Source: Schmidtea polychroa (taxonomy: Eukaryota). From it: 64,000 bases of DNA. The first letter of the stretch is position 1. Every line of letters starts with the position of its first letter. The notes beneath the pieces were generated by a model, which had not been told where the DNA came from, made no database searches, and worked only from the letters and a program-made list of their open reading frames with translations. A program made the translations under genes and the position numbers. Positions 16,741-41,243 of the stretch are shown here, piece after piece. The stretch covers positions 69,874,001 through 69,938,000 of the forward strand of contig CM097888.1 in assembly GCA_044892525.1 (NCBI GenBank), written 5' to 3'.

Positions 16741-16787
16741 GTTTGGGATATACGTCCCGATTTTTGTCTTTATCTTTTTATTCACCC

Positions 16788-17843: not shown

Positions 17844-18037
17844 CTCTAAATCATAGACATCGATTAAGCTTTTTATTATGAAAAAGGAATTTATTCATTA
17901 TTTGCTGTTTCTTTGGAAATTTTCGCATCATTTTTGGGTTTACGTATTTAGGGTTTTTCATACTATTATTATATAATATTTTATTGGTTATATACACCGA
18001 TATATACAGATTATTATATACAACATTATTCGATCGT

Positions 18038-19426: not shown

Positions 19427-19511
19427 TCTATAATTATATGTACATATAGTTCTTATCGATACAGGTTCGATATTTTATTTACAGTTATTTACATTTTAAG
19501 CTAGGTTTGGT

Positions 19512-20164: not shown

Positions 20165-23100
20165 TTATCTTTGATTATTTTTATTGTCGCCCCCCGTTAT
20201 GATTAGGAAGGCCCCTGTTATTATTATCCCACTGATCCACATCATCTGCTTCACGCTTATATTCTCTGGTTTCTCCTTGTTCGTTAATGTTGATATCGCT
20301 TCTATACCTTTCTCGTTTCCTCTTTTGCCATTTCCTTTCATCATTTCCCGTATTCTTGCTATTTCCTCGTTCATACCCTCCTTTGCCATCTTTTGTATTT
20401 TTTCCATCTCTTCCTCCGAAACATAGTTGTCCTGAGCTTCCTCGCCGGTTTTCTTGTGCTTTCCTCCTTCGTTCTTTTCGTCGTGGTTTTTTCTTTTCTT
20501 TCCTCTTTTCCCTGGGTATCGTCGGCATTCTCTTTTTGATTCATTCCTCCAGATACAAACCGTGTATTCTTTCGGCGGCTGCTGCTGCGTCACATATTGA
20601 TGGCATCTCTCACCTGGTCCTAATCTTGAAATACAGACTTTGTGCTCTCTTCTAGGTTGGAGCTGCGTTATTACTATTTCACCACCTTTTCCTAGGTGTA
20701 CCTCTTTTCCTTTAACGTTCGTTATTCTCTTCCCGTCTCGATTTCGGTATGCTTCTTGTATTCTTACTTCTGTTATTGGTTCTGTGTCCTCATTTATCAG
20801 TACTAGTTTCTGATACGCTCTAGACATGCATCTTCCTAGTATGCACCTTTCCTTTAAGTCCCATTCTTCCTTTAAATCCCACTGCTGCTCTTGTGCTTGC
20901 TTTTTCTTTTCTTGTTTTAGTTCATCCTCTTTGCTATCTTGATTCTCCGCTTCTTTGGTTTCTTTTATCGTTCTCGTCCCTCCATGAGCTGTTACTAACT
21001 CTATCATGGTAAGCATAATTATCATTAATATCATATTTGTCTCTATTTCTTTGTTAGTGAAAGGTAGGCATACCCTCTGTTTTCCATTATTCGGTTTTTC
21101 CTCCTCTTTGGTCTTGGTTCCCGGGCTGTTTCCCTCTCTTTTCGTATCCAAATCCTTGTTTTCCGGTTTATCCTCTTCCGGTTCTCTTTTCCCTTTATCC
21201 TCTTTTCGGCCTTTTCCGTCATTGTCATCGTGTTTATCTCCCCCGCTGTCGTTTAAAATGTCGTCCTCGACATTTATATCGTTCAATAATCTGCGATATG
21301 CTGTTAGCACTCTGTTTCTTGCTAATTTTGCTTCGAATTCAAACTCTTTTCTACCCGTTGCAGCATGTCTCTTTCTATTCCATTCTTTAACTAACTCTCT
21401 CAATTGCATACGACGATGTTTCCCAATTCGTTGTTGCTCGTTCTGATTTTGCGTGAATTTTAGGTCTTCTCTATTTAATACTATTAAAATAATTTTAGGC
21501 GTCCCCCCTTTAGTTAGGGTATTCTTTACCATCGCATTTTCTCCGTTTTCGTAGAATTCGTTTACATTTATCGCATATTTATTATTTTGTGGTACCTTCC
21601 ATGTTAATAATAATTTCATTGCTTCTAGATTTTTCCGTACCGTATTCCATTGAAATTGAGATGTGTTTTTGCACATATTCTCAACTTCTTCTTTTGTCGC
21701 ATTTTTGCAAATAAATCTGATCATTTCTAAGTTTGGCTGTATGGTTGCCCAGTCCAATGTGGAGTTCCCTTCGTTTGATTTTTCGTCTAGTCTCGATCCT
21801 GATTGATGTAAGATGTGGAGTGTTTTTGGGTGTATTTTCGTTATAGCTGCATACATCATGGCGGTTTCACCTTGTTCATTTTTCGTGTTGGTTTCCTCAC
21901 CCATCTCCCCAAGGATTCTCATGATCGTTATTGCTCTATTCTCTTTTGCAGCTAGTATTGCTTGTTGTAGAGGTGTTCTGGAATCCTTTGTTACCATCGT
22001 AAATGCTCGAGGCAAGAAGGTTTTGATTTTCCCGATATCTAAACCCGTGGTTTGATCTCTTGCGTATGTGTGTACGGCTTTTATTATTTTGGACAATATT
22101 ATTTCGTCTGGCAGCTCTAGCATTTCCTCAAAGAACACTTCTTTTGCTTTGCGTATTATTGCCTCTTGATCTATACTCATTGATTTGGTTTCGATGACGT
22201 TGTTTGTGACCGTTTGGTTCGTTGTTGACTTTGATTCCCTTGATTTCTCATACCTTATTTTCGTTTTCTTTCCGTTTGGATTATTGATTCGTTCCTCTGC
22301 TGTAAGTATTTGGATAATATCCAGGTAATTCTCGCGGATGTTATTCATTGTGTCCATCATATATAACACACTTACCGTTTCCCAATATTTATTTCGTACT
22401 TGGTTAGTAAATTGGAATATTGATTTTTCGAATGTGTCGATTCGCTTTTTTGCTAACTGTTCATCTTTATGATTTGTGAATTTTATCCCTCGTTCTAGTA
22501 ATTGATTCGGAATTTCGAATAAATGATGTCCTTTCATAGCTTCTCTCATCAGCGTGTTCTCTCCTCTCGTGAACGCTTCGTTTACGTTGATCATATAATC
22601 GTTTTGAATTGGATTTCTCCATGTAATTAATATTCCGGTAATTGTTGTCAGTTTCTCTTTGATCGCTGTTAATAATCCATCATACATGTTTCCGACTTCT
22701 CGATTGTCCTCATATGATAGTAGTTCCATCAACGACGTGAACGCCTCGGTACTTTTCCCTTCGATAGCATGATGTAGAGCGTTTTTCCGCTCGTGGTCTT
22801 GTGTAGTTATTTTCGATCCAGTATCGAGTAATGCGGTTATAATGTCTTTTGTTTTGCCTCTGTTTGCGGCTATCATTAATGGTGTGTAACCTTGGTTGTT
22901 TGTTTGTTCTGTTGATCGCTTGCAGTCGTGAAATGCTTCTATTGTTTCTAGTATTTGCTCGTTGTTACCTACTTTCATGAGTTTGTGTAATGGTGTGTCT
23001 CCGTAATGATCTGTTATTGTAAATAATATTGGCCATTGGCTTTTGACTACTCGCAATAATGGGTGTGTCCTTTCTCTATTTGCATAGTTCTCGATCATCG

Positions 23101-26100
23101 TCAATAATCCTCCTAATATTTCGAAATCTAATCGATCTTTTGCCCATCCAGGTATTTTAATTTTTACCTCTTTTACAATCTTTTCCGCTTCTGATGGTTG
23201 GATACCCAATCGTCCGGTGATCGGTTCTGCGAGTTGTTGCATCATGTTCATTCTGTAGGTTTGCGAACGTGTGGTTAATGTACGGCCCTCTGGTTGACTA
23301 GTGGCTGTTTTTGGAATTGATTTGCATCGTGCTACGTTTACGTATATTGGCCTGGTAAATGGGTTATTTACCAATTTCACTCTTACATTGGTTTCGCCTA
23401 CGAATAAGATCTCATATGGTCCTTTTCCGTTGCGTTGTAACTTTTTTGTGGTTCCTGGAATTAATTCCGGGGTTTCTATCATTACCCAATCACCTGTTTG
23501 AAACGTATGTTGCTTCACGTTTTTCTTTCGATCGTGTAAATCTTTATAACTTTCCTGGTAGAACTTGATATTTAATCCCGCAGTTTCCCAAATCTCCTGC
23601 ATTCTTTCCTTGAATTTCGTAACATAATCGTCGATCTCCATATACTGCGATATCGGTGGTTGGTATTCCAGGTCCATTGGCATATTACATTCTCTTCCGT
23701 ACATTAATTTGAATGGGCTCATTTTCGTTGATGCGTGAATCGACATTCTGTACGCCATAAGACATAGGTTTATATATTCGTCCCAATCTCGTTGGTGACG
23801 GTCAACGTAGTTTGATAACATTTGTATAAGTGTTCCATTAAATCTTTCCGTCATCCCATTGGTTTGGGGGTGGTATGGAGATGTTCTTAGTTTTGCTATT
23901 TTGAAGTAATTTGTTACTTCGCTCATTATCTCACTCATAAAATTAGTTCCCTGATCGGTTAATATCTGTTTTGGTGTTCCATATCGGCAACATATCTCTT
24001 CTACCAGAATTTTTGCGATTGTTTTAGCTTTTTGGTCTGGCATCGCGAATGCTTCTGGAAATTTCGTAAGAAAGTCGGTAATCACTAAAATATAAACGTT
24101 TCCTCTATCCGATTCCGGTAATGGACCAACTACGTCCATTGATATCATCGTCATCGGCTCTATTGGTACGGGCATTGGCGTTAAAGGCGCTTTCCATTTT
24201 GATCCAGTATTTTTCCTGGTCGCACAAGTTAGGCAATTTTTTACCCATTCGGTTACATCTTCAGTTAACGTAGGCCAAAAATATTTCTGTTTCATTCTTG
24301 CTAACGTCTTTTTCGATGACATATGTCCTCCCAATCTCCCATCGTGATATTGCGTTAGTAACTCTTTTCGTCGGTTTTCCGGTATACACATTAATCGTTT
24401 TTCCCCATCCATTATCAGCAACCAATCTTTCTCTATAATATATCGGTGTCGGTGTTTATCCATATGTTCTTTTAATTTTTGGTCTTTCGCATATACATCT
24501 GTCTTTCCGGTTTTTACATAATCGATAATTTGTTTTAATTCCGCGTCCTCTTGTTGGTTCTTTCGCAATTGACAGAAATCTAGGTCTTCTGCTACCATTA
24601 GGCATATGCGTTGCATTTCTGAATCCACCAAATCTGGAAAAATAAATCTTGACATACAATCGGCGTTGGCATTTGCTCTTCCCGCTTTGAATTTTATAAA
24701 TGGGGAGTATTCTTGCAATTGCATGGCCCATCTCATCAGTCTACTGGACGCTTCTTTATGTTGCCCTAACCACACTAATGGTTGATGATCTGTGGTTATA
24801 CATATCTCATGTCCCCATAGTAAATATCGGAAGTGTTTGATAGCTTGTATTATAGCCAATGCTTCTCGTTCTGTTACCGAATAGTTCTTTTCGTGCTTTT
24901 TGAATGTTCGACTGTAATACCCGATTACTCTCTCTTTTCCTTCATCGTCTAATTGTCCCAGAATCGCGCCTGCCGCGTACCCGCTTGCATCCGTTGCCAA
25001 TAGAAATGGCTTCTTAAAATCTGGGTGTACTAGGATAGGTGCTTCGATTAGTTTATCTCTCAGCGTTTCAAACGCCTCTTGTTGTTCCTTCCCCCAAATG
25101 AACGAAATGTCCTTCTTTACTAATTCCTGGATTGGTTTTGCAATTTCTGCATAATTTTTTATAAATTTGCGATAGTATCCGCATAATCCTAGAAATTCCT
25201 GAACTTGGGTGACAGTTTTCGGTGCTGGACATGTTTTTATTTTCTCAATGTTTCTTGGATCTGGCTCCTTTCCTTTAGCTGACACTATGTGTCCTAAAAA
25301 CGTGACTTTTTCCTTTGCCCAATCGCATTTTGATGGTTTGAGTTTGAGTTTCCACTGTCTTAATCTAATAAATACGTTTCGGATATCTTCCAGATGTTGT
25401 TCAAATGTCGCTGAATAGATTAGTAAATCATCAATATATACCATACATTGTTTGATTCCATGAGTGACAAAGTTCATACACCGTTGAAATGATGCTGGTG
25501 CGTTGGTCAGTCCGAATAGCATTTTCCTGAATTGATATAGATCTCGTCCCAACGTGAAAGCTGTTTTCTCTTTGTCCTCATCTTTGACTTTAATCTGCCA
25601 GTATCCACTTTTTAGATCTAAAGAAGTAAAATATGCTGCCCCTTGCAACATCAATAACATCTCATTGATGTCCGGCAATGGATAGGTATCTCTCTTGGTT
25701 ACTGCGTTTAACTTCCGATAATCGATACAGAATCGTTGGGTGCCATCTTTCTTTTTTACCATGACCACTGGGAATTGCCAGGGTGAGCAACTTGGTTCGA
25801 TTACTTTTGCGTCTAGCATCTTTTGTACTTCTGCTTCGGCTATTTCTTTTTGCATTTCTGCTAGCTTGTATGGTCTTAATGCAATTGGAGTTTCATCTAT
25901 GAGGGGTATTGCATGTAGGGTAACATCGCATGTACCCAAATCTAAATCTGAGATGGCGAATATATCTTTATATTCTACCAACAATCGGTGCAATTTTTTC
26001 TTTTCATCATTCGTCAACAACATACTATCTATTGTCCATAATTCATCATCTTTGATCATCTCGTTGGTCACTTTCGGTAATTCTATGTCCATCATTGGGG

Positions 26101-28870
26101 TCAATCTTCCCAATTTTTCGTTCTCATAAATGATTTTGTCTTCCTCTTCGAAATTCGTGATGTTGAGCGGTATCACTCCTTCTTGGTTTATTGTGATTAT
26201 TTCCCTTTCGAGTGGTAACTCTCGTCGCTTTTCAAATGACTTGCTTGGTTCAAAGATAACTTCTCCTTCCATACCCGTATCCACTTTTATCTGACAAATC
26301 ATCTGCGATTTTGCTGGTACTATTATTTTTTCTGGACATCTGATTACTGCATTCATTTTGCATATTCTACCGGTTTTGTCTTTTAAACACATGGTGGTTA
26401 AGTCAATTACGACTTCTTTTAACAATTCTGGCATCAAATCCGTTCCGATTATGCATGGTACGCTAAGTTTTGGTATTACTGCCAAATACGTTTCAATTTC
26501 GTTGTCCTGGTATCTCAAAGTAGTCCACCATCTTCCGACCACGTCCACTGTTTCTTTACTACATGCTATGATGTGAATTGTTGTTGATTCGATATCTTTC
26601 CAGTGTTTACTGGGGATTTGATTAATCGCTATCGCTGATACATTAGCTCCGGTGTCTATCATAGCATTGGTTTCTTTACCATTGATTTGAATCATAACTG
26701 TTACTGCTGGACCTCCAGGTAGACTCATTGCTGCTATTGTTCTTACGTCATCTGCTTGATCTACACTTTTGGTACGTCGTGTTGGCATATAATGCATACC
26801 GGGTTGACTCGGTAATTGCGGATACATATTTTGTGTCATGGTCAAAGCTGCTTGTGGTCCCACGATATCCGGTGGTATGTAGCTTCCATTGGCGATCCAG
26901 GTATTTGTCTTTTCCTTTTCCCAATATGGTGCCGTTTCCATTGGTTTTTCGTTTGGGTTTCTGTTTGGATATAGACATTTATCGTTCCCGTTATCGTCGT
27001 CGTCACTATCGCTGTTAGATGATTGGCTTCTAAATCGGTTCAAGAATTTTGGCTTATTCTTTTTCAATTGTCGTCTTGTTGCTTCATCGTACATTACTTT
27101 CCGGAATCGTCTGCCTACTTCTTCGTCGGTTCCTTTAATCTTTGTTAATATTTTAATCAATTGCTTTATCCGATGAATGTCTTTTGAGTGACCATGTAAT
27201 ACCATGGTTTTAGCTAAAAATGGTAGAAAGCCTACTATCATTTTCCAATTTACTTTCTTTTCTCGCTTGTATATATCAAAACACGCTAACATTTGTGTTA
27301 GTTTTACTCTGACTATCTGAATTATGAGTATGATCCCTAATATCCCGGCCATCATTTGTCCAAAAACTAAGAATCTTCCCCACATTGCTTTCATCATGTT
27401 CGATGTGGCTTGTTGAAAATGGTCTGGTGATAGTAGCAGCTCGTAATTCGGGCCTGATTGATAATTTGTTCCCCCCGTTATTGTAACCATATTTGACAAA
27501 ATGGATTCTCGTCTGGCTGGGAAGAGTACGTTAAGTCGTGCTGTTTCTAGATCTTCTGGGGAATACATACCACCGTTTGACACGTCTATAGGTTTGAAAT
27601 CCAGCTCTGTGGCGAGTTCTATTAATCCAAATTTCTTGGGCTCCTCGGATATGGTTTTTCCCGGTAACATCATCCATTTCCCATCGGGTCTTTCATACAA
27701 AGGTCCGTATGCATTAGAACAGTTAAAGAGATTTGGGTAGAAACCCACTGGATTCATAATTCTAGTGACTGGTAGGACGAATCGATTTTGTCCTTTATAA
27801 CGGATTTCTAATTCATTTGCACATCTCTTTTCGGGTAGTATGGATTTTTCTGGCATTCGTGCATACGTCTTGGTACACTGGTATGTGTACATCACTTCTC
27901 CTACCATTCTACCAAAATGTCCATCTGGTAATGGGAGTGATGGCATTGTGTTATCTGGGTGTGTTATCGCAATAGCTAACTTGGTTTTCAGTATTTCTTT
28001 ATTCAATGAACAATCGTTTTGTATCAGATCGTAATATACTTTTTGCAAGGTCGTTTGTCCACGGTGAAATAGAAAATCCATTTTATTATTTGCATATAAG
28101 TATAGTTTTACGTCCTCCGTTGCTATCTTTCCCACTGCTCTATCGATTATTTGTCTCGACATATAGATACCAGCGTAATTGGTTTTATATACTATACTGT
28201 CACATTTGGTGGTTTCTTTCTCTTTGATAAATCTCATACCTAGATCTGGATCGTCTGTGATTAATGCTGTTGGTGTCTTCTGCGTTGAAAGTCTCTTTTC
28301 TCTGGGAGATGGTGGCATTGGTTTTCCATTTCGCATTCTCACCCTGTCGTTTCCATCCTCGTCGTTCTCGTTCTCATATATTTCTCCTTTTACTTCATTG
28401 AACAAAGCACTTTTTAACAGTTGGAGTCGGCATTTTTGGGTATTAGCTTCATAGATTATAGTTGATACTCCTGTCCTGCATACGTTTTCTGTAGCTCTAC
28501 ACGCTGGGTTGGTCTTCATTTGATAATTATTTGCGTCAAATTGCGCTTCGTATTCTTTTAATTCGACCGTGTAAGACTCGATCACTACTACTCCCGATAT
28601 TACCTCACCTCGGATCGTATACGTACCTCCGTTACATGACCCATCTGATGATTTTAGTTTTCCGGATACGTAAACGCTTTCGGTTTTAATCATTCCAGTT
28701 TGTCCGTGAATCGTCACTCCGTTATGCATTTTTAGCGCTCCGGTTCTAAATAGCTCTTTACAGTCCTCTCGTTGTATGGATACGATTTCTTTATCCAGAC
28801 CAGGTAGTATAAGAGTCGAATACGAATATTGTCCACAGTAATATGGAGTACCTTTTTTGATACCACGCAT
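20165..28870 (-). CDS. pol: Env-Pol polyprotein (2,901 aa ORF): chuvirus/gB-like glycoprotein + TM, aspartic protease, RT, RNase H, integrase, ankyrin repeats, C-terminal membrane module
   Basis: Env motifs YYCG, GSCNGG, GEVMYTYQC, RCANEL, FVLPVTRI and a TM at ~27305-27375. PR IDTGA (26648-26656). RT PYK/SPW/DYRKLN/LDLKSGYWQ/FGLTNAP/YIDD (25427-25438). RH TDAS..EREALA..TDH. IN HHCC, MDVVGP, TDQG, ERFN, GPY. ANK motifs GDTPLH, GYTPLMIAA, KNALHHA, GETAMMYAA. Confidence 0.93.
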   Translation of the reverse strand: MRGIKKGTPYYCGQYSYSTLILPGLDKEIVSIQREDCKELFRTGALKMHNGVTIHGQTGMIKTESVYVSGKLKSSDGSCNGGTYTIRGEVISGVVVIESYTVELKEYEAQFDANNYQMKTNPACRATENVCRTGVSTIIYEANTQKCRLQLLKSALFNEVKGEIYENENDEDGNDRVRMRNGKPMPPSPREKRLSTQKTPTALITDDPDLGMRFIKEKETTKCDSIVYKTNYAGIYMSRQIIDRAVGKIATEDVKLYLYANNKMDFLFHRGQTTLQKVYYDLIQNDCSLNKEILKTKLAIAITHPDNTMPSLPLPDGHFGRMVGEVMYTYQCTKTYARMPEKSILPEKRCANELEIRYKGQNRFVLPVTRIMNPVGFYPNLFNCSNAYGPLYERPDGKWMMLPGKTISEEPKKFGLIELATELDFKPIDVSNGGMYSPEDLETARLNVLFPARRESILSNMVTITGGTNYQSGPNYELLLSPDHFQQATSNMMKAMWGRFLVFGQMMAGILGIILIIQIVRVKLTQMLACFDIYKREKKVNWKMIVGFLPFLAKTMVLHGHSKDIHRIKQLIKILTKIKGTDEEVGRRFRKVMYDEATRRQLKKNKPKFLNRFRSQSSNSDSDDDDNGNDKCLYPNRNPNEKPMETAPYWEKEKTNTWIANGSYIPPDIVGPQAALTMTQNMYPQLPSQPGMHYMPTRRTKSVDQADDVRTIAAMSLPGGPAVTVMIQINGKETNAMIDTGANVSAIAINQIPSKHWKDIESTTIHIIACSKETVDVVGRWWTTLRYQDNEIETYLAVIPKLSVPCIIGTDLMPELLKEVVIDLTTMCLKDKTGRICKMNAVIRCPEKIIVPAKSQMICQIKVDTGMEGEVIFEPSKSFEKRRELPLEREIITINQEGVIPLNITNFEEEDKIIYENEKLGRLTPMMDIELPKVTNEMIKDDELWTIDSMLLTNDEKKKLHRLLVEYKDIFAISDLDLGTCDVTLHAIPLIDETPIALRPYKLAEMQKEIAEAEVQKMLDAKVIEPSCSPWQFPVVMVKKKDGTQRFCIDYRKLNAVTKRDTYPLPDINEMLLMLQGAAYFTSLDLKSGYWQIKVKDEDKEKTAFTLGRDLYQFRKMLFGLTNAPASFQRCMNFVTHGIKQCMVYIDDLLIYSATFEQHLEDIRNVFIRLRQWKLKLKPSKCDWAKEKVTFLGHIVSAKGKEPDPRNIEKIKTCPAPKTVTQVQEFLGLCGYYRKFIKNYAEIAKPIQELVKKDISFIWGKEQQEAFETLRDKLIEAPILVHPDFKKPFLLATDASGYAAGAILGQLDDEGKERVIGYYSRTFKKHEKNYSVTEREALAIIQAIKHFRYLLWGHEICITTDHQPLVWLGQHKEASSRLMRWAMQLQEYSPFIKFKAGRANANADCMSRFIFPDLVDSEMQRICLMVAEDLDFCQLRKNQQEDAELKQIIDYVKTGKTDVYAKDQKLKEHMDKHRHRYIIEKDWLLIMDGEKRLMCIPENRRKELLTQYHDGRLGGHMSSKKTLARMKQKYFWPTLTEDVTEWVKNCLTCATRKNTGSKWKAPLTPMPVPIEPMTMISMDVVGPLPESDRGNVYILVITDFLTKFPEAFAMPDQKAKTIAKILVEEICCRYGTPKQILTDQGTNFMSEIMSEVTNYFKIAKLRTSPYHPQTNGMTERFNGTLIQMLSNYVDRHQRDWDEYINLCLMAYRMSIHASTKMSPFKLMYGRECNMPMDLEYQPPISQYMEIDDYVTKFKERMQEIWETAGLNIKFYQESYKDLHDRKKNVKQHTFQTGDWVMIETPELIPGTTKKLQRNGKGPYEILFVGETNVRVKLVNNPFTRPIYVNVARCKSIPKTATSQPEGRTLTTRSQTYRMNMMQQLAEPITGRLGIQPSEAEKIVKEVKIKIPGWAKDRLDFEILGGLLTMIENYANRERTHPLLRVVKSQWPILFTITDHYGDTPLHKLMKVGNNEQILETIEAFHDCKRSTEQTNNQGYTPLMIAANRGKTKDIITALLDTGSKITTQDHERKNALHHAIEGKSTEAFTSLMELLSYEDNREVGNMYDGLLTAIKEKLTTITGILITWRNPIQNDYMINVNEAFTRGENTLMREAMKGHHLFEIPNQLLERGIKFTNHKDEQLAKKRIDTFEKSIFQFTNQVRNKYWETVSVLYMMDTMNNIRENYLDIIQILTAEERINNPNGKKTKIRYEKSRESKSTTNQTVTNNVIETKSMSIDQEAIIRKAKEVFFEEMLELPDEIILSKIIKAVHTYARDQTTGLDIGKIKTFLPRAFTMVTKDSRTPLQQAILAAKENRAITIMRILGEMGEETNTKNEQGETAMMYAAITKIHPKTLHILHQSGSRLDEKSNEGNSTLDWATIQPNLEMIRFICKNATKEEVENMCKNTSQFQWNTVRKNLEAMKLLLTWKVPQNNKYAINVNEFYENGENAMVKNTLTKGGTPKIILIVLNREDLKFTQNQNEQQRIGKHRRMQLRELVKEWNRKRHAATGRKEFEFEAKLARNRVLTAYRRLLNDINVEDDILNDSGGDKHDDNDGKGRKEDKGKREPEEDKPENKDLDTKREGNSPGTKTKEEEKPNNGKQRVCLPFTNKEIETNMILMIIMLTMIELVTAHGGTRTIKETKEAENQDSKEDELKQEKKKQAQEQQWDLKEEWDLKERCILGRCMSRAYQKLVLINEDTEPITEVRIQEAYRNRDGKRITNVKGKEVHLGKGGEIVITQLQPRREHKVCISRLGPGERCHQYVTQQQPPKEYTVCIWRNESKRECRRYPGKRGKKRKNHDEKNEGGKHKKTGEEAQDNYVSEEEMEKIQKMAKEGMNEEIARIREMMKGNGKRGNEKGIEAISTLTNKEKPENISVKQMMWISGIIITGAFLIITGGDNKNNQR

Positions 28871-29175
28871 TCCCTTGCTTGCGTTCTGATGAAATCTGAT
28901 TCTTGATATACATGGTAAGTAACTTTTGTTCTTACTATGTCTAATTTGTTGGGTGATGCTTGTCTACATTCTTCTATGTCTCTCAATGAGTATTTATCTC
29001 TCATTATCATATTATCACAATCGTAGATGGTAAAACCCGTTGCTCCACTGGTGCACAACATCCATATCATCATAGTCATCATTAACGAATTTATTGATGC
29101 TTTTCGGCTTGTTGGGTCTTTCATGGGTAGTTCCCATTCTAGTTCATTTAGCAACTTCTTCAATCTAACTTGCAT
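28732..29175 (-). CDS. env: N-terminus of the envelope glycoprotein (signal peptide plus start of ectodomain); joins the large ORF by a -1 shift near 28852-28858
   Basis: Hydrophobic leader SLMMTMMIWMLCTSGATG, then FTIYDC...IEEC...HVYQ...ECVVSKK. This continues as (G)TPYYCGQYS in the -1 frame, as expected for chuvirus-type G N-termini. Confidence 0.78.
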   Translation of the reverse strand: MQVRLKKLLNELEWELPMKDPTSRKASINSLMMTMMIWMLCTSGATGFTIYDCDNMIMRDKYSLRDIEECRQASPNKLDIVRTKVTYHVYQESDFIRTQARECVVSKKVLHITVDNIRIRLLYYLVWIKKSYPYNERTVKSYLEPER

Positions 29176-32100
29176 CGACCTTTCTTGCTCATTTTTTCGT
29201 GGTGCTTGTATAAGTCTTTTCCACGAATAATATGTGGTTCAATAGTATTCTCTATGATTGAAACGGTCATTTCCACATGATTTGCAAACTGTTTATTTGG
29301 TATTTTCCTCGCAGCTAGTCCCATCAAATTAAACATCAAATACGTGATTACCACTAGGTGATGTTCGTCATCATTTGCATTCGTCGTGAGCTGTTCAATC
29401 ACTCTCTTTGTTTCATCCCAGTCCGTTTTGGTGGTTTTCGTTTTCTCTTTGATTAACTTTGGAATTATCCCCGAAACGATGTGCCATAATTGTCTAGCTT
29501 CCGTACTGGCTACTTTCCGTTGCCACAAACGTCTAAGTTGTGGGTTTGTTATTATTAACATATCTTTTAACAATTCTCGTATCCATTTTTCTCCTCTTTC
29601 GATCGTTGGTTGGGCTTCCTTTAGATCCCATACTATTTTATCCAATTTTTCTAATCGAACTTGCCCTTGTTCTTGCTTTAATTGTTCTTTGGTTTTAAAC
29701 TCAGACTTTTCTCCTTGTTTCTTAGGTCTTCCTTTTGCCCGTTTTTCCATCATCGTTCCGGCTTCTCTGGTATTTTCGTAATTCGGATTTCTTTCGTTAT
29801 CCGTCCTGGGTAATGAGCTATCGTTATTTCTTAGCCACTCATTCCATTCGTCTATTATTTTATCGGTTTGACCTTCTGGTGTTACTTTCGTTGGTTCTCT
29901 TTGCTTCTGGAATTGTTCATCCGTTTCGGTTTCCGTAGTATTGTCGATGATTTCTTTGATGTTCAGTTTCGTTGGTTGTTGATAACTCGTTGATGGCTGG
30001 TTATTAGTCCACATTTCGGCTCCTGTCGGCCATCTCACTAATAGCGGTGATCTTTCTCCTGGTTCATCGTCACTATCTTCCAGGATTATCTCTTCAACTT
30101 CTTCAGTTTCATTAGATTTACTTGGTGCTTTGTTCGGACTTGGAGTACTCAAACTGCCTTTTGTTGGTTTAGTAATTTTACTTTTCCTTTTTAACGGTTT
30201 CCCCAACGTTTCTGCCATTGTTAATACATTTGTCTCTTCCAATCTCATGGGTGTTATTCCGACGTCTGCATTATCGTCTAGTGATTTTCCGAACAGTTGC
30301 AGATGGAATGGAGTTTCATATGCTAATTTCTTTTTTAATTCTCTAATCTTTGTTGTTGGATGCACCTCTAGTTCCTCGATGCTCTTGTCCGGATACTTGA
30401 TTCGGATGTGATACCTCTCCTGAGTGTCTTGTGCCCATTCCTGATTTCTCCATTTTCGAATAATTTGTTCTAGCTGTTCTGGATACCATTCATTATATTG
30501 CCGGTATTCCTCTATTGCCTTTGCCATTCCTCTCAGATTGTGGATGTTTTCTGATGTTTTTAAGATGATGTTAGCCAACGCTACTACTTGGCGTTTTTGA
30601 TTTTTCGCTCCCATTGCTAAGATATCGCCTAATTGTTTATATCTTTCTTTCTCTTCTCGTTCTCTTGCTTCTATTGCTTCCTCGCCGTCCATATCAGCAT
30701 ATTCTCGTTCCTTTTTCCTCATTGCATGAATATGTCTCGCTTCATTTTCGCTTTCTGATGTGACATCCGTCTCGCTTTCGTCATCCGATGTCTGTTCCCT
30801 TTCTTCTTCTTCATATTCTGGAGGTTCCTCTTCTTCTTCCTCCGATTCACTTTCTGTCTCACCAATGTCTGTTTCTACGAAGATTCCTTTCCGGATTTCC
30901 CATTCCTTAGTTTCTGCATTCCACATTCTTTCCCATGGGGTTCGTCTGCAGGATCTGGTACTTAGTTTCGTGATTTTTCCTTGTAGTTCCTTTTCTTTTA
31001 ACCATTGTTGGTGGATTTTAATTATTTCCGTAGATTTTTGATATAACGTTTTCATCCGGTCTCGTATTTCTTTTTGATAGGTTACATCTCTTGTTCGAAA
31101 TTCATCCATTGGTACTATCCTGATTATCTGATGATTGTCCCACATACCCATTTCGCTTAACGAGGTGTCGTCCTCCGCTCGTAATATTATTTTATCGTAC
31201 ATCATGACTACATCATCCACCATACCATCACTACTTTCGCTACGTAACTTTTCCGTTATCTCTTGGTTTATTTTTGATACCAAGTCATCTACTGTACTCT
31301 GATTGCTCATTTTTATTCGTCGTTTTTCTTCGTTCGGTAACCATATGGTTATTTCCAACCTCTGTGGCTGGGTTTCTTTTAACCTTCCATATTTGTGGAT
31401 TAAATTTATGGTTCTCCAATCACTCATCCGGAGCATTTCTGTATCTCGCAATCGGCTCATTAGTTCGTACATGGCTGGGGCTCGTCTGGTGATGAGTAAA
31501 TCCCAGTTGTCTTCCACTTGTGCTTGAATTTGTTTGATCAGCTTATCCAGGTTTCGTCTCAGAGTACATTGTTTTATTTGTTCTAATTTCAATTTGATGT
31601 TAAAATCATATTCTGCCTTGGCATCTTTAGCCCAATCGTACAGGTTGGCTGGTTGTTTTTCTTTATGCAACTTCAGTATTTGCGTTTCTCCTGGCCATAT
31701 TAGTGCATCTACTAAGTGCATATCTGGTTTGATCTGTTCTCCTTGGTATTGATACAGATATTCTTTCTTTCTCGAACTTCCCAAATGTTCTCGTATCCAA
31801 TCGAAAAGTTCGTCGGTGACTGTATTTTTTATCCACATTCTTTCAAGTCCTCTGCTCGTTCCGATTTTTATGACATACCGCGTGGTATCTGCCTGCTTCA
31901 TTTTTTCCATATACTTTTTTATAATTGATTTTTCCTCGTTTGGTATTAAATCTTTCTCGTTTCTTTCCAATTTCATCACTTTTTGCACGAATCGCCTGAA
32001 TGGTATTACGTCGATGAACTCTTGGTTCCTCACTACTACTGGGAGTATTTCAGCTACTTGTTTTATCGCTTCCTCCCTCTCTTTTCTCAACTTTATTTCG

Positions 32101-33875
32101 ATATCTTCGTCTTCACTTTCACTGGTTATCTCGCTTTCGCTTTCTTCCTCTTTGATTTCCCCTTTTGGAGGTTCGCTTATTTCATTCAGCTGTAGTATTT
32201 CTCCACCCAAACTACTTACATAGTCTTCTTCTTCGTCTGACGATGCTACATCTTTTGTCCTTTTCATCATATTGATTTGCAAGTTTCTCATCCTTGGTAC
32301 TCTCTTTAGTTTCTTTCTTTCGAATATTGTTGTTTCTTCTGATTCCAATTCTTGTAGCATTTGGTGGTTTAGTTGACTGGTTTGTTCCTTGCTCTTGTTA
32401 TTTTCATCTTCTGTCTCGGCTTTCGCTTTATTATGTTCTTTTTCGATTTTATCTTTTATCTTTTTCCAGAATATTTTCTGAATTCTCTGGTTTCCTTTTA
32501 AAATCGTGGTTGAATTCTCTGTTTTCATTTCCGTTGTTGTTTCTGTTACCTTTTCTGGTTCAGTCATGGGTGCTACCCTTGGGTTTTTCCCGCAATTGTA
32601 GCAATACTGGCTTTTCATGTCTTTTACTAACTTCATCATATTAATTCGCAATGGTTGTTCTTGTCGTTGTTGGTTGCGTTCTTGTTTTATCCTCTCTTCC
32701 TCGGCCTGTAGTCTTTGCCATTCTTGTACATGTTGATGCACTTCATAATTGTTGAGATTTTCGGTACTCCTCATCATACGTATGTTCTGGGTTTGTTGTG
32801 GTGCTGGTTCTTGTCTTGGTCTCATCATTTGTTGCATCATCTGTTTCATCTGCGAGATTTCCTGCATAACGTTCATTTGTTTTCCTTCGCTAGGGTTACT
32901 TTGTCGTTGCGGATTCGCCATATAATTATTATTTCGCTGTGGTGGTCGTTGTTGTTGGCCCCTTTCTCGGCAATCTCTGGAGATGTGACCTGGCTGACCA
33001 CAGTTAAAACAACCTCTCAATTGGCATACATTTTCGGTATGTCCACGCCGTCCGCAACGATTACAATTTGAATTTCTATAACAATCTCTGTCCCAGTGTC
33101 CTGGTTTACCGCATGTTCGGCACTGCTTGTTATCGTTCATATTTCGTCGATTACTAAAATTGTTCTCATTATTCAGGTTGTTACGATTACCATTATTCCC
33201 ATTTGATCGTCCTTGTGGTGGTTTGAAAATTTGGTGCGCTCCTGGTATAAATTGATTCATTTTCGGTTCTTGATTGTTGTTATCTCCGTTATCCGCTTTC
33301 GCTATTGCTGTCGCTATCCTCCCATCTTCTTGCATAATATTCATTTGGGCTGGAAGGTGGAGCTCGCATCTTGTAGCCCAATCTATGGCTTCCTCTAATG
33401 TTTTGCACATTTGACAACCTACTGAGGCTCTTACTTCTTCTCGGCGTAATCCCTCTATGAAATAACCGATCAGATTTTCTTCGGGTAATTTTCCATTCAT
33501 TGCTTTCTTCGCTAATCTCCGCAATTCACTGGCATATAATGTTATCGATTCGTTCGCTCTTTGTTTCCTATTTGCTAGTTCGCCCAACGCCTGGTTGATT
33601 GGCTTACTGGCTCCGAAGGTTTTCTTCAGGAATGTTTTGATATCTTCCCACTTTTCTAATTTCGTATCTCTCTCTTTAGCTTCTAAATATACTTCTAATG
33701 CGCTATCGCACAAAAACAACGGCATCCTTTTACTAATTGCTTCGGGTGTCCATCCACACACCGTGATATAAACTTCAAAATTAGTTATGAACGTTGCTAG
33801 CTTGTTTGCATTTCCGTTGAACGGTTCTCCTCTGAACTTCTCTTTATACTCGTCGGTTTTTACGATATTCGTCAT
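29160..33875 (-). CDS. gag: Extended Gag polyprotein (1,571 aa): capsid, 3 CCHC zinc knuckles, long extension with 3 ubiquitin-like domains
   Basis: Ty3-type capsid motifs (FNGNANKLATFITNFE; KQRANESITLYASELRRLA; FIEGL). Knuckles CRTCGKPGHWDRDC, CNRCGRRGHTENVC and CFNCGQPGHISRDC. Confidence 0.92.
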   Translation of the reverse strand: MTNIVKTDEYKEKFRGEPFNGNANKLATFITNFEVYITVCGWTPEAISKRMPLFLCDSALEVYLEAKERDTKLEKWEDIKTFLKKTFGASKPINQALGELANRKQRANESITLYASELRRLAKKAMNGKLPEENLIGYFIEGLRREEVRASVGCQMCKTLEEAIDWATRCELHLPAQMNIMQEDGRIATAIAKADNGDNNNQEPKMNQFIPGAHQIFKPPQGRSNGNNGNRNNLNNENNFSNRRNMNDNKQCRTCGKPGHWDRDCYRNSNCNRCGRRGHTENVCQLRGCFNCGQPGHISRDCRERGQQQRPPQRNNNYMANPQRQSNPSEGKQMNVMQEISQMKQMMQQMMRPRQEPAPQQTQNIRMMRSTENLNNYEVHQHVQEWQRLQAEEERIKQERNQQRQEQPLRINMMKLVKDMKSQYCYNCGKNPRVAPMTEPEKVTETTTEMKTENSTTILKGNQRIQKIFWKKIKDKIEKEHNKAKAETEDENNKSKEQTSQLNHQMLQELESEETTIFERKKLKRVPRMRNLQINMMKRTKDVASSDEEEDYVSSLGGEILQLNEISEPPKGEIKEEESESEITSESEDEDIEIKLRKEREEAIKQVAEILPVVVRNQEFIDVIPFRRFVQKVMKLERNEKDLIPNEEKSIIKKYMEKMKQADTTRYVIKIGTSRGLERMWIKNTVTDELFDWIREHLGSSRKKEYLYQYQGEQIKPDMHLVDALIWPGETQILKLHKEKQPANLYDWAKDAKAEYDFNIKLKLEQIKQCTLRRNLDKLIKQIQAQVEDNWDLLITRRAPAMYELMSRLRDTEMLRMSDWRTINLIHKYGRLKETQPQRLEITIWLPNEEKRRIKMSNQSTVDDLVSKINQEITEKLRSESSDGMVDDVVMMYDKIILRAEDDTSLSEMGMWDNHQIIRIVPMDEFRTRDVTYQKEIRDRMKTLYQKSTEIIKIHQQWLKEKELQGKITKLSTRSCRRTPWERMWNAETKEWEIRKGIFVETDIGETESESEEEEEEPPEYEEEEREQTSDDESETDVTSESENEARHIHAMRKKEREYADMDGEEAIEAREREEKERYKQLGDILAMGAKNQKRQVVALANIILKTSENIHNLRGMAKAIEEYRQYNEWYPEQLEQIIRKWRNQEWAQDTQERYHIRIKYPDKSIEELEVHPTTKIRELKKKLAYETPFHLQLFGKSLDDNADVGITPMRLEETNVLTMAETLGKPLKRKSKITKPTKGSLSTPSPNKAPSKSNETEEVEEIILEDSDDEPGERSPLLVRWPTGAEMWTNNQPSTSYQQPTKLNIKEIIDNTTETETDEQFQKQREPTKVTPEGQTDKIIDEWNEWLRNNDSSLPRTDNERNPNYENTREAGTMMEKRAKGRPKKQGEKSEFKTKEQLKQEQGQVRLEKLDKIVWDLKEAQPTIERGEKWIRELLKDMLIITNPQLRRLWQRKVASTEARQLWHIVSGIIPKLIKEKTKTTKTDWDETKRVIEQLTTNANDDEHHLVVITYLMFNLMGLAARKIPNKQFANHVEMTVSIIENTIEPHIIRGKDLYKHHEKMSKKGRCKLD

Positions 33876-35239
33876 GATTGGTGTTCTAGATTCGTCTGTT
33901 TCTTTTAAATTGTCTAACGATGTGACTAAACTTTGGGCTGATAATTCCTCGGTTGACGTTGCTAAACTATTAGTGATGTCGGACAGACTTTCTCTGCTTC
34001 GAGATCGACTAGGGGTGTATCCGAGATTTTCTTGATCAAATATAGGTACTTGATTGGTTCTTCTTGATCCTTGTGATATTCCTCTTTGCTGTTTAATAGA
34101 TCGTCCTCTTTTGAGTTGTTGTAATTCGTCTCCTGAAAATAATACGTCTCCTGGCTTACTTGAAGATCTAAGATTGGGTTTATCCGTGATTCCTTTCTTA
34201 CGCTTCTTGGTAATTAGCGGCTATTGAATTGGACGAGTTCGGTTCTGATTGTGTTTCCTTCGATAAATATTCTGTATGAATCTGCTACTGTGATTCTGAG
34301 GAGATTCACTAGTCCTTGACAGATGGCTGCTAATATTATGAGGTTGAATATATCGATGATTCGTTCGAAGTTGGAGATGTCGCTATCTGTATCTTCTTCC
34401 GTTCTGGAGTCTTCCGGTTGCTGTGTCTCTCGGTGCGGGTTCTGAATGGATTTATTCTTGGTCGATTGTCGATTTCTTCGAATTCCTTTTGTGCAGGTTC
34501 TGGATTGTCTTGGTTGACTGGATTGGTTTGATATCTAAAATTAAAAAATGATCTCGTGTTGCATTTGCTTACACGACTTCATCATTCTTTCAACAACGTT
34601 CGAACACAGACACCTTTTAGGTTCTGTTTATGCTTCCCCTATTGTTTATGCAATTACTTCCGCGGGTTATAATTTCCCATCAGCCCGAATTTTTCGTCGA
34701 TTTTAAATTATCTATATGGGGTAGTAACAATTATCTATAAAGTCGTAATAATTATCTATTCGTTATCAATTATAGTAAAAATAGGTCGTTGTCGGTCTCT
34801 GCTTATTACTCCCCTTCGTTTTCCTATTCCTTTTGCGCTGTTGTCGCTATTTTACTTTTCATATTTACTATTATTACACTCGGTTCGACTCTGGGACCAA
34901 TAAAATGCATTTTCCCGGTTTAACCAAAAAAAATATTCCGTAGAGTTTCTCTACTTCACTGGGATCCCTTTAATTAGTTGGTTACTTTCCTCTTTACTCA
35001 TTATCATCGTTTCGCCTATTCTTTATTTTCCATTATCTCTTTAATTCGGTTCCTTCTTCCCTTTCCTTTTTCATTATAATCTTATTATCTTTTCCACGAG
35101 CTCGTTTATTTCCTCTCTAAACTCAAATTTTCGTAATTACATTCAATTTGTTTCTAGCTGGCTTTAATATTCCCTTTCTCTATTAATTCAGATATTAGCT
35201 CATTGTAGCTTAACTGCTATCTCTCGCTTTTCTAGGCCT

Positions 35240-35764
35240 TTACGACTGGCTGGCACTATTCAACAGCTCAATCTTCTTCCTCCTGACCGGTTGGACTATT
35301 CGACAACTCGATCTTACGACTGGCTGGCACTATTCAACAGCTCAATCTTCCTCCTTCTGATCGGTTGGACTATTCGACAACTCGATCTTACGACTGGCTG
35401 GCACTATTCCACAGCTCAATCTTCCTCCTTCTGATCGGTTGGACTATTCGACAACTCGATCTTACGACTGGCTGGCACTATTCAACAGCTCAATCTTCCT
35501 CCTTCTGATCGGTTGGACTATTCGACAACTCGATCTTACGACTGGCTGGCACTATTCCACAGCTCAATCTTCCTCCTTCTGATCGGTTGGACTATTCGAC
35601 AACTCGATCTTACGACTGGCTGGCACTATTCAACAGCTCAATCTTCCTCCTTCTGATCGGTTGGACTATTCGACAACTCGATCTTACTATCTCCGAACTG
35701 GCTGGACTTTTCACAGCTCAGTTTTCGTTTTCCTTGACCGGCTGGACTATTTACAGCTCGGCTT
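35240..35764. repeat. 74-bp tandem repeat in the element leader (6 full units plus 1 degenerate)
   Basis: Copy of 8956-9480. Confidence 0.92.
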
Positions 35765-36324
35765 TAACATTCTTTACTCTGCATGCTTCTACTTCTCTCT
35801 TTCTTCTTTTACTCAAGATTACCATTTTCTCTGTCTATTTTTAATTTGTTGACTTAATCTTTACCGCTCGGAAGTGTGTCCCCTTTCCCCCCTTGCTCAA
35901 AACGCACGACGATCGCGATGATCCATTTCTACATTGGCATGGTGATCAGTCATGCCGTAGAAACTTCTCATCATTTGCGATGGTACCCCGCCCTACGCTC
36001 CTCACTTAGGTTGATCGGTTATCCCCTCCCAATTGGTTTTATCGTATGATAGAACGTACCGCCCTAAGGTGGCTCGGTTTGTACCCTTACAGCCTATATT
36101 GGGACTAATTCCACGTTATTTCGGTTTTCTTTTCGTTTGATTCCAAAACAAAGTTATAAAATAAAATTAAAAGCCATAAATTACTCAGTTCACAACAAAA
36201 ATTTATTCGTCATAGAAATAAAAATTAAAACTTTAATAAAATTTCACACAACAATTACATTTATTCTCATTCAATCGTCAGTATCAATTTGATGTTCATA
36301 GATGTTATTGTATCTGTAACAGTT

Positions 36325-36810
36325 TTATTCACCATAGTAAACCATATGAGTTTCTTTTATCTCATGCCTACATATCGTACATCGTTTTAAATCGTTCACA
36401 CATTCTTCGCAGTGACTGAGGTGTCCACACGGCAAAAACAGTACGCGAATAGGACGAAGTTTACAAGCGCGACAAGTTCGTAGTAGAGTCAGTTTTTCTT
36501 GTATTTTCCGCTCGATTGTATCTGATATGGTATTTAGTGGATCTTTTATACGTTGATAATCAAGATTTAATGCTGGGTGGTTCAATCTCTCTTGATACCA
36601 TTGATACACGGTTTCCGGGTTTACCTTCCCATCTGGGTGACTTAGTCCTGTGGCTAATAACATGTGGTTGGGGACGACTGGTGTTTGCCCGATTGCTTGA
36701 AGTAGTATGATGTTAATTCTTTCTCTTTTTTGTGTCAGCGTTTTAAGGGAGTCATTCTCGATGTTTATGAAGTTGATTAGTTGTTGTATCTGGTCTACGA
36801 ATTCCGTCAT
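36325..36810 (-). CDS. Leader ORF with C-terminal IAP/Mdm2-type C3HC4 RING
   Basis: CRACKLRPIRVLFLPCGHLSHCEECVNDLKRCTICRHEIKETHMVY at the extreme C-terminus. Located between the PBS and gag. Confidence 0.85.
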   Translation of the reverse strand: MTEFVDQIQQLINFINIENDSLKTLTQKRERINIILLQAIGQTPVVPNHMLLATGLSHPDGKVNPETVYQWYQERLNHPALNLDYQRIKDPLNTISDTIERKIQEKLTLLRTCRACKLRPIRVLFLPCGHLSHCEECVNDLKRCTICRHEIKETHMVYYGE

Positions 36811-37108
36811 GTCTATAAAAAAAATGTTTCAGTAATATATGACTTCGTTTCGTCAAACATTCTCTTTTCTAACTCGTTATCATTATTTTACTTTTATCTT
36901 ATTTCTCTATCATTAAATTTGCTTTATTTATATTTTTAATTTTATTATTTTCTATTCGTGATTATAATAAGATTCGATAAGCATTAGTCAATTTGCTCTC
37001 GCTAACCCATTGAAATCACTAACCCCGGTGAGTTCACTCTATTCGACAGAAATTCACTCAATAACATCCCTATCCAGTTTACACTAATCAATGGAAATTT
37101 CAATCTAG

Positions 37109-37126: not shown

Positions 37127-37133
37127 AAAATTA

Positions 37134-40100
37134 TGTTGCGGGTACACTACTCGGATGACCCTTTTCTAGTGCAGCTTTAGTCTAGAGGATGAATGCCCAC
37201 CTTGATTTCGCCCATCATTTATTTGGTCATCGCCGAGCGGGACCCGTACATAACCTACACTCCAGCATAGCACCCGTGAATTGCTTCACGTTGGAACTGT
37301 GCTATGCCGGCGAGACGCCAGTAAGCAGGTGAGCCAGCTCCTTCGGACTACTCCTTACTGAGGCCTCGACTTCCCAACCCTGACTGCCGATAGAAGGACT
37401 TACGTCTACTCATTCCGTCGCCCCTCGCAATAATTCTAGCTGAGTTTACCAACTGACTAATGCTCCTCATAATTTTATGACTCTCAATGCCATTTACCAA
37501 TTTCAACTCAACTGTCTTAAGGTGAGCACAAAGAAAAAACGTATGCAGACAAAAATGGTTTATTATTAAGGTTATCACACAAATATATCTAACACCTATA
37601 CAATAAAATTCCCGACAACAGGAAAAGAGACAAAGGTAAAAATGTTATCAGACAATGTTCGGGCCATTTCAGAGAACGAAGACTTTTTACGGAGAAATTC
37701 TCATTTCTCCCACTCCGAGTCTGCCAATAGATCTTCCAAATCGAAAAACTCAGAGGCATTTTCCTCCCAGGTAACACCAGCGGCGGAGATGATTCGCCCT
37801 GAGATCACTGATGCTAAATCGATTGCTGCAGGAGGGTTGATGACTTTGATTGGATGATCCGACGATCGCGGGTTCTGTTTGGCGGTTACGCGTTCCCGCT
37901 GTTTCTTTTTGCGTTCGGCTCTCGATAATTGCCGACGCTTTGGTTTCGATGCCGTTGGATTGGTCGGGGGTGCTGCGGAGGTGGATGCTATCGCAGGTAG
38001 CACGTTACTGGTTCCGGTAAAGATGATTTCTGGTTCTTTAGGTGAGAGCTCGGTCTCTACGCACCCATGGCAAGGCTTTCCGACTGGAGAAGAAGACCCG
38101 CCCGAGATATCATGATGCGCTGGGAAGAGATTACCGGCTTCATTACTTGGGATCTTCGCGATCTTCCTTGTAATTGCTGCCTGGACGTATAATTTGTGCA
38201 GCGCCTCCGACTGCTCTTTTATCAGGCTCCTCTGCGCCCGACTCTCGGAAATCAACGCGTCTCTACAGTGCTCGCTTCGGTGCAGCTTCTTCTGAGCCTC
38301 CTTCATCTGGGTGGGACTGAACCATGTCCCCTCTAACTCATCTATCTTTCTTTTGTGCTTTCCGATCTGGGCCTGGAGCTCCTTGATAATTGAATTCTTG
38401 TCGGAGCAAGAAAAACAAGGTCGAAGAACGGTCTTGGAATTTGGCAACATTTGAGTGACTGTGGAAAAAATGGAAAATGAGAATAATTAAATCGACGTGA
38501 GTGTCACCATCTAACCACATTCCGACTTTACTGATCATAGACAAAGATATGGGTTTACTAGTCAAGACAAGTTCTACTGTACGATGGATCCTCATACCTT
38601 TTGGATCTTTAATTGTAAGAGGATAAATCGATCAAACCAAATTTCGTACAAGGAAAGGAAGGTATTACCATTTGTGAGAGAAATTCTAGGTCGATGAAAA
38701 TGATTATTTAGTTAATCCGCTTGCAATCATTATCTCACGTTTACTGAGAGTCGAATTAAATTGTTGACTTTTCCCCCCGAACGAGTGATTTTGATGAGTG
38801 CATCATATACTGGGGTCGAGTGACTATCTATGGAAAAAGGGGTCCATAATGTCCGTTGATCAGTTCCTACCGGATAAACGGAAAGTTATTTAATTTTTTA
38901 ATTATTTATTCATTCTCTCTAATTACTCACATATGTGTTTTACCTGGTTTAAATAATATTCGATATTAATACTAATGATAATTATGTCAAAAATTGAAAT
39001 AATTTCTGTGCCATTCATGCTAAGATAATAAAGAGAGAATAATCATAATTATGATCGGGTTTGGCATTAAAAATTATTGTCTTTATGATAACCGAGCACG
39101 GTATCAATGTGAGCTAGAAGCCGACCATTCCTGCTAGGTAGATAAGGAAATGTCAGCCCGGTGGTTGACTATTAATCCGGAGCGGTGAAATCCGATACCT
39201 GTCGGTAGTTTAATTAGTTAATAGAAATTCCATCTGGTATGTTCAGTCTGATTTTACATGAGTAGGGACGGGTGTGACTTTACCCACTGCGCTTGGCTAC
39301 TGTGTATGTCTGCAACTGGTGACGCATGCAAGGTGCGCTTTCACACACTTAATTATGCTACAAATGTATGTGTTCAATGTTTGCATGATGGCATTTCTCA
39401 GAATTTTATCTACCGCGAAATCGCTCACAGTTCTACTGCATATGATGATGATTTACTAATTCTCACCGGATTATTGGAAAAATTATAATTATCTGTATTG
39501 CAAATGTTGGATATAGCTTGCTCCAAGGGTGGATTTTTCGTCTTTAATTCCTCAAGCCTAGTTTATCAATCTACTCTCTAAGTGCTGGAGGATTTTTTCT
39601 ATCTCTGCTGGATTGCCAACCTCATGTAATACTGGAATTTTGTATTTAACAAGATTATCGGCTAACTTGAAGAAATATATTTTCTTGGTTCGAATTGGTT
39701 GCATTTTTCATTGTTAAATTAGTTGATGCCAATAGTTTATGTAATTAGGATAATTAATTGTATGTAAATTCTTTTATATATAATTCTAAAAATTTATGAT
39801 AGAGAATCATTTTATGTAATTTAAACGTTCATTTGGAACAAACTCGTTTTATGCAATTCTGAATCACTTTTTGGATTAAATCATTTTACATGGTTCTACC
39901 ATTTATTCACAAGCAGTCATTTCGAGTAATCCTAATACTTATCTGAAGCCATCTACTTTGAACTCCCTTGCAACTATGTCTTTAAGAGAACTTTTAGATG
40001 AACGGAATAACAGTTCAGAAGGTCATAGGCTAAAAATTAGTCGGAACAGATTCTGAGTGAAAAATATGAACCTCGAAGATATGTCACAGATAGCCTCACT

Positions 40101-41243
40101 AAGGTTTGAACAATTCTTGACGCACAACTTACATTGATGATGGAGAAAATTTTCTTAGCAAAAACGACATTCAAAAACGATAGTGTGACACCCTCAATCA
40201 CTGCGCGAATACATCAAAATTCTCCGATTCCCTTATTACATATCTTTGTTTTCAATCACTACATGACTATCAATTTTCTGCCACCATTTACCTATAGATT
40301 TTAGTCGCACCTTCAGCAATTGGACCCGTGAAGAAGCCTTCACATTTCGGCCCAATCTAGCTGCGTGATTGAAATACCCTATGTCCACCGGTGGAGCTCC
40401 CGAAGGCACCTCACACCATGACATAGAGTATCTCAACGCCACGTTTCTCGCAAAATTGAATAGTCTCCAATAATAATTCATAAAAATTGATTCGTAAAAG
40501 ATCAATAATTCTTAACGAGCAAATCATTTATTATTAAGCAAATTATTAATTTAAATAAAGCATTCTAAAATCAAACGAAAAGAAAAACCATTTTTCAAAT
40601 TAAAAATATAATTAAACTATACGCATTACTTAAAAATTCAAAATAAGCAATCAAAAATCCTTATCGAATGATTGATACTAGTATGGGCTGAGTCGAAAAG
40701 GGTACTATGTCAAATCAGTTAATGCTTGAATATCGTCTAGTTCTGTAAAAATCTCTTGAATCTTGGAATTGTCCTCGTGAGTTATCGTGCGTTAGTTGCT
40801 GGAGTTCTGTTCTGTCGTAGAATAGATTTACCTATTGAGGTGGTTTGATTAACAGTAGTTGTTATGTTTTTAATGCCTGCTTATATATTAATTTTTTGTT
40901 TGCGCGGACCAATTAGAATTGAGTACCGCTTAATTTTATTAATTTAATTTATTTTCCTTGTTTTTGAGTTATTTCTTCTTATTTTCTTTATTAAAATTAT
41001 GTTTTTATTTATTTTCCTTAATTTTCTTATTATTTACTATATTTTACGTTGTTTTCCGCCATTCTATTGTCCTATTTTAATTTTTTCTCATCTTTATATT
41101 TTTTGTTTTAATTCCTATTTTCTAATTATTGTTTTTCTTATGTTTTATTCTATTTTATTTGTCAATTTATTTGTTTTTATTTTTTATTTTATTTTAGTTA
41201 AGTTTGCCCTAATTTCCCAACTACCCTTCGACTCAGCCCAACA
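37134..41243 (-). repeat. 5' LTR, 4,110 bp
   Basis: The minus strand starts TGTTGGGCTG at 41243 and ends ...CCCGCAACA at 37134, a 5-bp terminal inverted repeat. It is followed by TAATTTT and the PBS. Confidence 0.9.
37701..38450 (-). CDS. LTR-encoded ORF, 249 aa (CxxC, coiled coil, basic NLS-like patch)
   Basis: Longest ORF in the LTR, with PCFSC, a coiled coil and KPKRRQLSRAERKKKQRER. An acceptor-like TTTTTTCCACAG lies 8 nt before the ATG. Confidence 0.6.
   Translation of the reverse strand: MLPNSKTVLRPCFSCSDKNSIIKELQAQIGKHKRKIDELEGTWFSPTQMKEAQKKLHRSEHCRDALISESRAQRSLIKEQSEALHKLYVQAAITRKIAKIPSNEAGNLFPAHHDISGGSSSPVGKPCHGCVETELSPKEPEIIFTGTSNVLPAIASTSAAPPTNPTASKPKRRQLSRAERKKKQRERVTAKQNPRSSDHPIKVINPPAAIDLASVISGRIISAAGVTWEENASEFFDLEDLLADSEWEK

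Follow-up and report, generated by a model that had tools for sequence, protein, structure and literature searches.

Repeated helical and ubiquitin-like units in the Gag-Env-Pol frame of a Burro-type giant gypsy element of Schmidtea polychroa

The window, that is, the whole 64,000-nucleotide stretch of Schmidtea polychroa DNA analysed here (GCA_044892525.1, contig CM097888.1, positions 69,874,001 to 69,938,000 of the forward strand), is occupied over its left 41 kb, on the minus strand, by a 26,284-bp unit repeated in tandem. Two element copies lie in tandem at positions 1-41243 with a single LTR common to both. The 14,959 bp over which the copies overlap were 99.95% identical (7 differences), and the same two frame breaks were present in both. 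The element has the following features.

37132..41243, minus strand: 5' LTR of about 4.1 kb; the repeat end at 41243 begins with TG, the inner end is approximate
36325..36828, minus strand: 5'-leader accessory ORF encoding a C3HC4 RING finger (Pfam E 8.5e-12)
29160..34220, minus strand: front part of the polyprotein, Gag-Env-Pol frame (P0001, 1686 aa from stop to stop)
33441..33722, minus strand: capsid (Retrotrans_gag, Pfam E 9.7e-10)
32967..33125, minus strand: nucleocapsid with three CCHC zinc knuckles (Pfam zf-CCHC and sequence)
28835..29230, minus strand: stretch flanked by two frame breaks that occur only in the two tandem copies of the window
20165..28963, minus strand: remainder of the polyprotein, with Env (Monjiviricetes-type fusion protein), PR, RT, RNase H, integrase and ankyrin repeats (Pfam)
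18038..19474, minus strand: accessory TRAF-like ORF (RING and MATH), 478 aa (Pfam)
3932..5602, minus strand: second tandem copy of the region with three ubiquitin-like domains (UBLs), at an offset of 26,284

As for the inner end of the LTR, the 3' ends of two of three other copies matched down to 37132-37134. The ORF listing showed an extra stop near 5219 in the left tandem copy, between UBL 1 and UBL 2. Among 1,671 candidate copies in total, 75 were scored, and 46 of these 75 carried one Gag-Env-Pol frame of 4,732 aa. At the frame breaks near 29,220 and 28,840 the window copy differed from all 18 other copies compared, and a copy without the two breaks read continuously from the knuckles to Env. 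The 1,686-aa "Gag ORF" is a peculiarity of the window copy, in which two frameshifts interrupt the longer frame.

By match to the published layout, the element is a Burro-type giant gypsy. In the text of PMC6431247 that describes it, Burro/GYPSM1 of planarians resembles the window element in its 26.3-kb unit and LTR of about 4 kb, in a Gag with three CCHC knuckles, in an Env placed in frame between Gag and Pol, and in a BCL2-like domain before Env, ankyrin repeats, MATH/TRAF and RING cargo and a ubiquitin/SUMO-like motif before BCL-2. One long ORF is a further shared trait, with 4,732 aa in the window lineage and 4,873 and 5,140 aa in the Burro ORFs given there. Compared with that published description, the window lineage lacks MATH in the polyprotein and has it only in the downstream TRAF-like ORF.

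Several other features of the window were recorded. The accessory ORF block after Pol (15193-19898, minus strand) contains, besides the TRAF-like ORF, four ORFs of 128-368 aa that could not be assigned confidently to a Pfam family, and the same holds for a 261-aa ORF within the LTR (37701-38486, minus strand). Between the RING ORF and Gag, the 5' leader contains an array of 74-bp repeats (35092-35835), and a 387-aa ORF outside the element (61952-63115, minus strand) had no Pfam match.

The sequence-only reading had proposed that three segments of the polyprotein front part follow the beta-grasp pattern of ubiquitin. Together with the helical regions in front of them, these segments are arranged as follows.

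31896..32105, minus strand: helical bundle 1, modelled as three helices
31665..31886, minus strand: UBL 1 (segment 1; model)
31377..31643, minus strand: helical region 2 (model)
31098..31364, minus strand: UBL 2 (segment 2), with a lengthened helix
30417..30632, minus strand: helical bundle 3 (54% identical to lineage D)
30210..30416, minus strand: UBL 3 (segment 3; Pfam E 0.0038)

HHalign gave probabilities of 31%, 73% and 95% to a ubiquitin profile for segments 1, 2 and 3, respectively, and each segment scored above 40/40 shuffles, the similarity of segment 1 being marginal. Segment 2 adopted a beta-grasp fold in its structure model. The model of segment 1 had the beta-grasp order of strands and helix, and two-domain UBL chains aligned with it from model residue 75-78 onward; it gave no single-domain Z, and its input alignment contained paralogous UBLs. 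A single-sequence model was unsuccessful (pLDDT 36). Scored by itself against profiles built from the remaining positions, segment 1 could not be told from shuffled sequence (70 and 15 of 500 shuffles scored at least as high). The structural neighbours included Dsk2, Rad23, NUB1, midnolin and UBX domains, tied with SUMO and ISG15, and BVDV polyproteins were also among them; these neighbours indicate the fold only. On the models (segments 1 and 2) and on profile similarity (segment 3), the three segments are very diverged, integral, non-conjugated ubiquitin-like domains, as had been proposed; the fold is secure for two of them and well supported for the remaining one.

Each UBL is preceded by a helical bundle of about 70 residues. 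When whole units were scored in lineages A (the window) and D on profiles that left out their own position, the score of unit 1 was reached by 4 and 0 of 500 shuffles, respectively, and those of units 2 and 3 by 0/500 in both lineages. The score of helical bundle 3 on a profile from other lineages was reached by 1/500 shuffles. Three units were counted in lineages A and D, two in lineage B (three subfamilies) and one in lineage C; four more public proteins contain one or two. Individual protein counts were two units and the beginning of a third in P0010, two in P0021, one plus a fragment in P0102, and one in each of P0099 and P0133. In each of the four lineages examined, at least one unit is retained between the nucleocapsid and Env. 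In lineage D and in P0010, units 2 and 3 are separated by a MATH domain, and the last domain recognised ahead of the Bcl-2-like domain is a UBL unit in lineages A to D and in P0099. The repeat unit is a helical bundle plus a UBL, present in one, two or three copies across four Burro-type lineages.

The TFIIS N-terminal domain was considered as a candidate relative of the helical bundle. Against four host PF08711 domains the bundle aligned over 49 columns in register with a probability of 1.3%, below the reversed control, and no TFIIS N-terminal domain was found among 13 PDB matches. In the same genome, a cluster of near-identical host genes carries a PF08711 (Med26/TFIIS N-terminal) domain, many of them in one contig region (L095-L105).

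Distinct synonymous and nonsynonymous codon changes among 19 copies numbered 14/1 in UBL 1, 8/4 in UBL 2, 10/0 in UBL 3 and 10/1 in helical bundle 3, against 19/10 in an acidic stretch and 29/40 in residues 530-700 of the same copies; since the 19 copies were the best matches to a query spanning the UBLs, nonsynonymous counts there are biased down, and the acidic stretch is the fairer control. Between lineages A and D, identity was 40-45% in the UBLs, 27-30% in the linkers and 52% in the capsid. As judged from these sequence comparisons, the repeat units are under purifying selection.

None of 21 UBLs ended in Gly-Gly, and their identity to host ubiquitin was only 9-24%. The absence of the terminal Gly-Gly rules out conjugation, as the sequence-only reading had thought probable, and makes processing in the manner of pestiviruses unlikely. 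Cytopathic pestiviruses, as described in the relevant part of PMC8310069, likewise carry a ubiquitin fold inside the viral polyprotein, but their insertions are near-intact host ubiquitins that are cut by host hydrolases. This precedent, and the BVDV polyproteins among the fold neighbours, would favour an explanation in which the UBLs are processing signals for host deubiquitinases or else functionless captured spacers. We regard it as highly improbable, given the missing Gly-Gly in 21/21, the low identity to host ubiquitin and the purifying selection on the UBLs. Ubiquitin folds in frame with a retrotransposon Gag also occur in BEL/Pao-type elements (DUF1759 Gag) of the same genome (L046-L054), where one or two near-intact ubiquitins precede Gag. 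The first ubiquitin unit ends in LRGG in L046 and L048, and the ubiquitins are preceded by varying pieces of host genes (DSPc, TCP-1, DEAD, EAP30 and a proteasome subunit). Unlike the Burro UBLs, the BEL/Pao ubiquitins are near-identical to host ubiquitin and N-terminal to the capsid, a separate and recent capture.

Candidate protease sites and the domains next to them were located as follows.

32262..32285, minus strand: predicted protease site at residue 649, where predicted accessory protein 1 would begin (ranked first of 1220 positions)
30741..30893, minus strand: acidic stretch; lineage D has a MATH domain in the corresponding interval
30717..30740, minus strand: predicted protease site at residue 1164, start of predicted accessory protein 2 (rank 4 of 1220)
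29229..29486, minus strand: Bcl-2-like domain (matched part), its end broken in the window copy (11.7 bits on a profile of lineages B, C and P0099)

The site matrix, trained only on 10 standard Gag/Pol junctions that were themselves inferred from domain borders, gave residues 649, 526, 480 and 1164 the four highest ranks among 1220 positions in P0001. In lineage D, the four aligned sites were the top 4 of 1428, the equivalent of residue 1164 ranking fourth; in P0010, two aligned sites were the top 2 of 872, this equivalent ranking second. The equivalent of residue 649 was top-ranked in both. A short hydrophobic motif occurred six times in P0001, and 6/6 occurrences aligned with the same motif in lineage D; the six-fold pattern was drawn by eye, and that count is therefore circular. 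The Bcl-2-like match was weak in lineage A and reached 26.3 bits in lineage D on the same profile, and Pfam Bcl-2 was matched in lineages B and C. A hydrophobic segment before Env was modest (Kyte-Doolittle 1.49 over 15 residues). From the rankings we infer that the motifs at residues 649 and 1164 are protease sites. Because such motifs bracket the UBL region, the UBLs would fall into two accessory proteins, likely outside mature Gag, and the region is likely cut away from the capsid and nucleocapsid. The placing of the UBLs in a "Gag extension" is not supported in that form: the ORF forms the beginning of a single Gag-Env-Pol frame, in which the predicted sites probably part the UBLs from the structural Gag domains.

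The receptor patch of the Leu8-Ile44-His68-Val70 type, as in the Rad23/Dsk2 shuttles, was not conserved among the 21 UBLs: Leu8 was found in 1/21, Ile44 in 1/21 and His68 in 0/21 (the loop alignment is approximate). Position 44 was hydrophobic or aromatic in 13/21, which may leave receptor binding possible; it was Tyr in UBL 1 and Met in UBL 2 of lineages A, D and P0010, and Gln in UBL 3 of both lineages. PPEY and YPEQL matches occurred in lineage A and were absent from its sister lineage D, and there was no PTAP. As neither the Ile44 patch nor the late-domain motifs are conserved, recruitment of ESCRT or proteasome factors, which the sequence-only reading had suggested, is not favoured. In its ESCRT form, the UBLs would mimic ubiquitinated Gag and recruit ESCRT for the budding of enveloped particles. 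The fusion glycoprotein of the element, the Tyr and Met residues at position 44 and the lineage A motifs fit this proposal; the loss of those motifs in lineage D, the lack of PTAP and the loss of the remainder of the patch speak against it, as do the predicted cuts between UBLs and capsid, though these would act only at maturation. We consider it improbable. If the UBLs were instead built-in proteasome or p97 tags that clear spacer products, they could set the balance of Gag, Env and Pol, which a single frame yields in equal amounts, and the neighbours of the Dsk2, Rad23, NUB1, midnolin and UBX type would agree with this as far as fold goes. The poorly kept patch, including Gln at position 44 of UBL 3, and the retention through every duplication of a helical partner that a tag would not need make such a role quite unlikely. 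The Burro UBLs differ from those of type II (integral) proteins, among them Rad23, Dsk2, NUB1 and UBX proteins: their receptor patch is not conserved, they always stand behind a helical bundle, and no UBA domain was found.

TRAF-like, RING and BIR-type ORFs accompany the polyprotein in these elements. In lineage D (L071:241-4705, minus strand), Pol is followed by TRAF-like, BIR-RING (IAP-like, 393 aa) and coiled-coil ORFs. Pfam BIR was not found among the 11 window ORFs scanned, although it does occur beside lineage D, and most of the 150 BIR matches scored in the genome fall in ORFs of 392-393 aa. A signalling role of the UBLs is suggested by these neighbouring domains, and the text of PMC6431247 makes the same suggestion in general terms for Burro cargo. 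Our favoured reading, which we hold to be about evenly balanced, is that the UBLs, likely released by the element protease in two accessory proteins, would dock as non-conjugated modules onto the ubiquitin and cell-death signalling of the host. Cuts at residues 649 and 1164 would yield predicted protein 1, with the acidic stretch and units 1 and 2 (and MATH in lineage D), and predicted protein 2, with unit 3, a linker, the Bcl-2-like domain and, last, the hydrophobic segment that precedes Env. Through this segment protein 2 would be held in a membrane, its UBL and Bcl-2-like domains lying in the cytosol. The UBLs might then bind host partners via surfaces other than the canonical Ile44 patch and cooperate with the TRAF-like, RING and Bcl-2-like products of the element, so that the host cell would stay alive and permissive.

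The units could also be internal adaptors of the element's own assembly that bind its nucleocapsid, RNA or Pol products, much as coronavirus nsp3 Ubl1 does with the N protein. Ubl1 and Ubl2 of nsp3 (PMC9938351, PMC8769549) are, like the Burro UBLs, integral, non-conjugated beta-grasp domains of a polyprotein and serve as binding modules with viral partners, although they belong to an unrelated element. The retention of at least one unit between nucleocapsid and Env and the absence of the canonical host-binding patch agree with this explanation, which we think unlikely because the copy number varies from 1 to 3 and the neighbours are host-signalling domains. To our knowledge, moreover, ordinary gypsy elements assemble without UBL domains.

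A bolder form of the docking reading can be put forward tentatively, as a less likely possibility: Burro-type elements would have evolved their own helix-UBL module, amplified one to three times and released as accessory proteins that include a membrane-anchored UBL-Bcl-2 fusion, and would thereby rewire host TRAF/IAP ubiquitin signalling and stop the death of the infected cell, a retrotransposon with a poxvirus-like anti-death toolkit.

The remark that no tandem-UBL Gag is known needs qualifying. The polyprotein text of PMC6431247 names one Ubi2/SUMO-like motif, between MATH and BCL-2, so that one such domain had been published; several copies are not mentioned in that text. Because the MATH domain of lineage D and of P0010 separates unit 3 from units 1 and 2, segment 3 corresponds by position to the published motif. 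Against that single position, the window element has three UBLs, of which the first two lie ahead of where MATH would stand; a helical bundle is paired with each, and the lineages carry one to three copies. In the literature searched, including the text of PMC6431247 on Burro elements, no mention turned up of a repeated helix-UBL module, of its varying copy number or of the predicted protease map.

Few LTR retrotransposons are as large as the Burro elements, whose polyprotein had been left about half unannotated in print; part of that half is mapped here. What had appeared as a "Gag extension" is recast as two defined predicted accessory proteins, each of which can be expressed and tested alone. 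If they do act on host ubiquitin and apoptosis pathways, this would account for the persistence of so abundant an element in an animal that removes its damaged cells, and the accessory proteins would be new probes of these host pathways.
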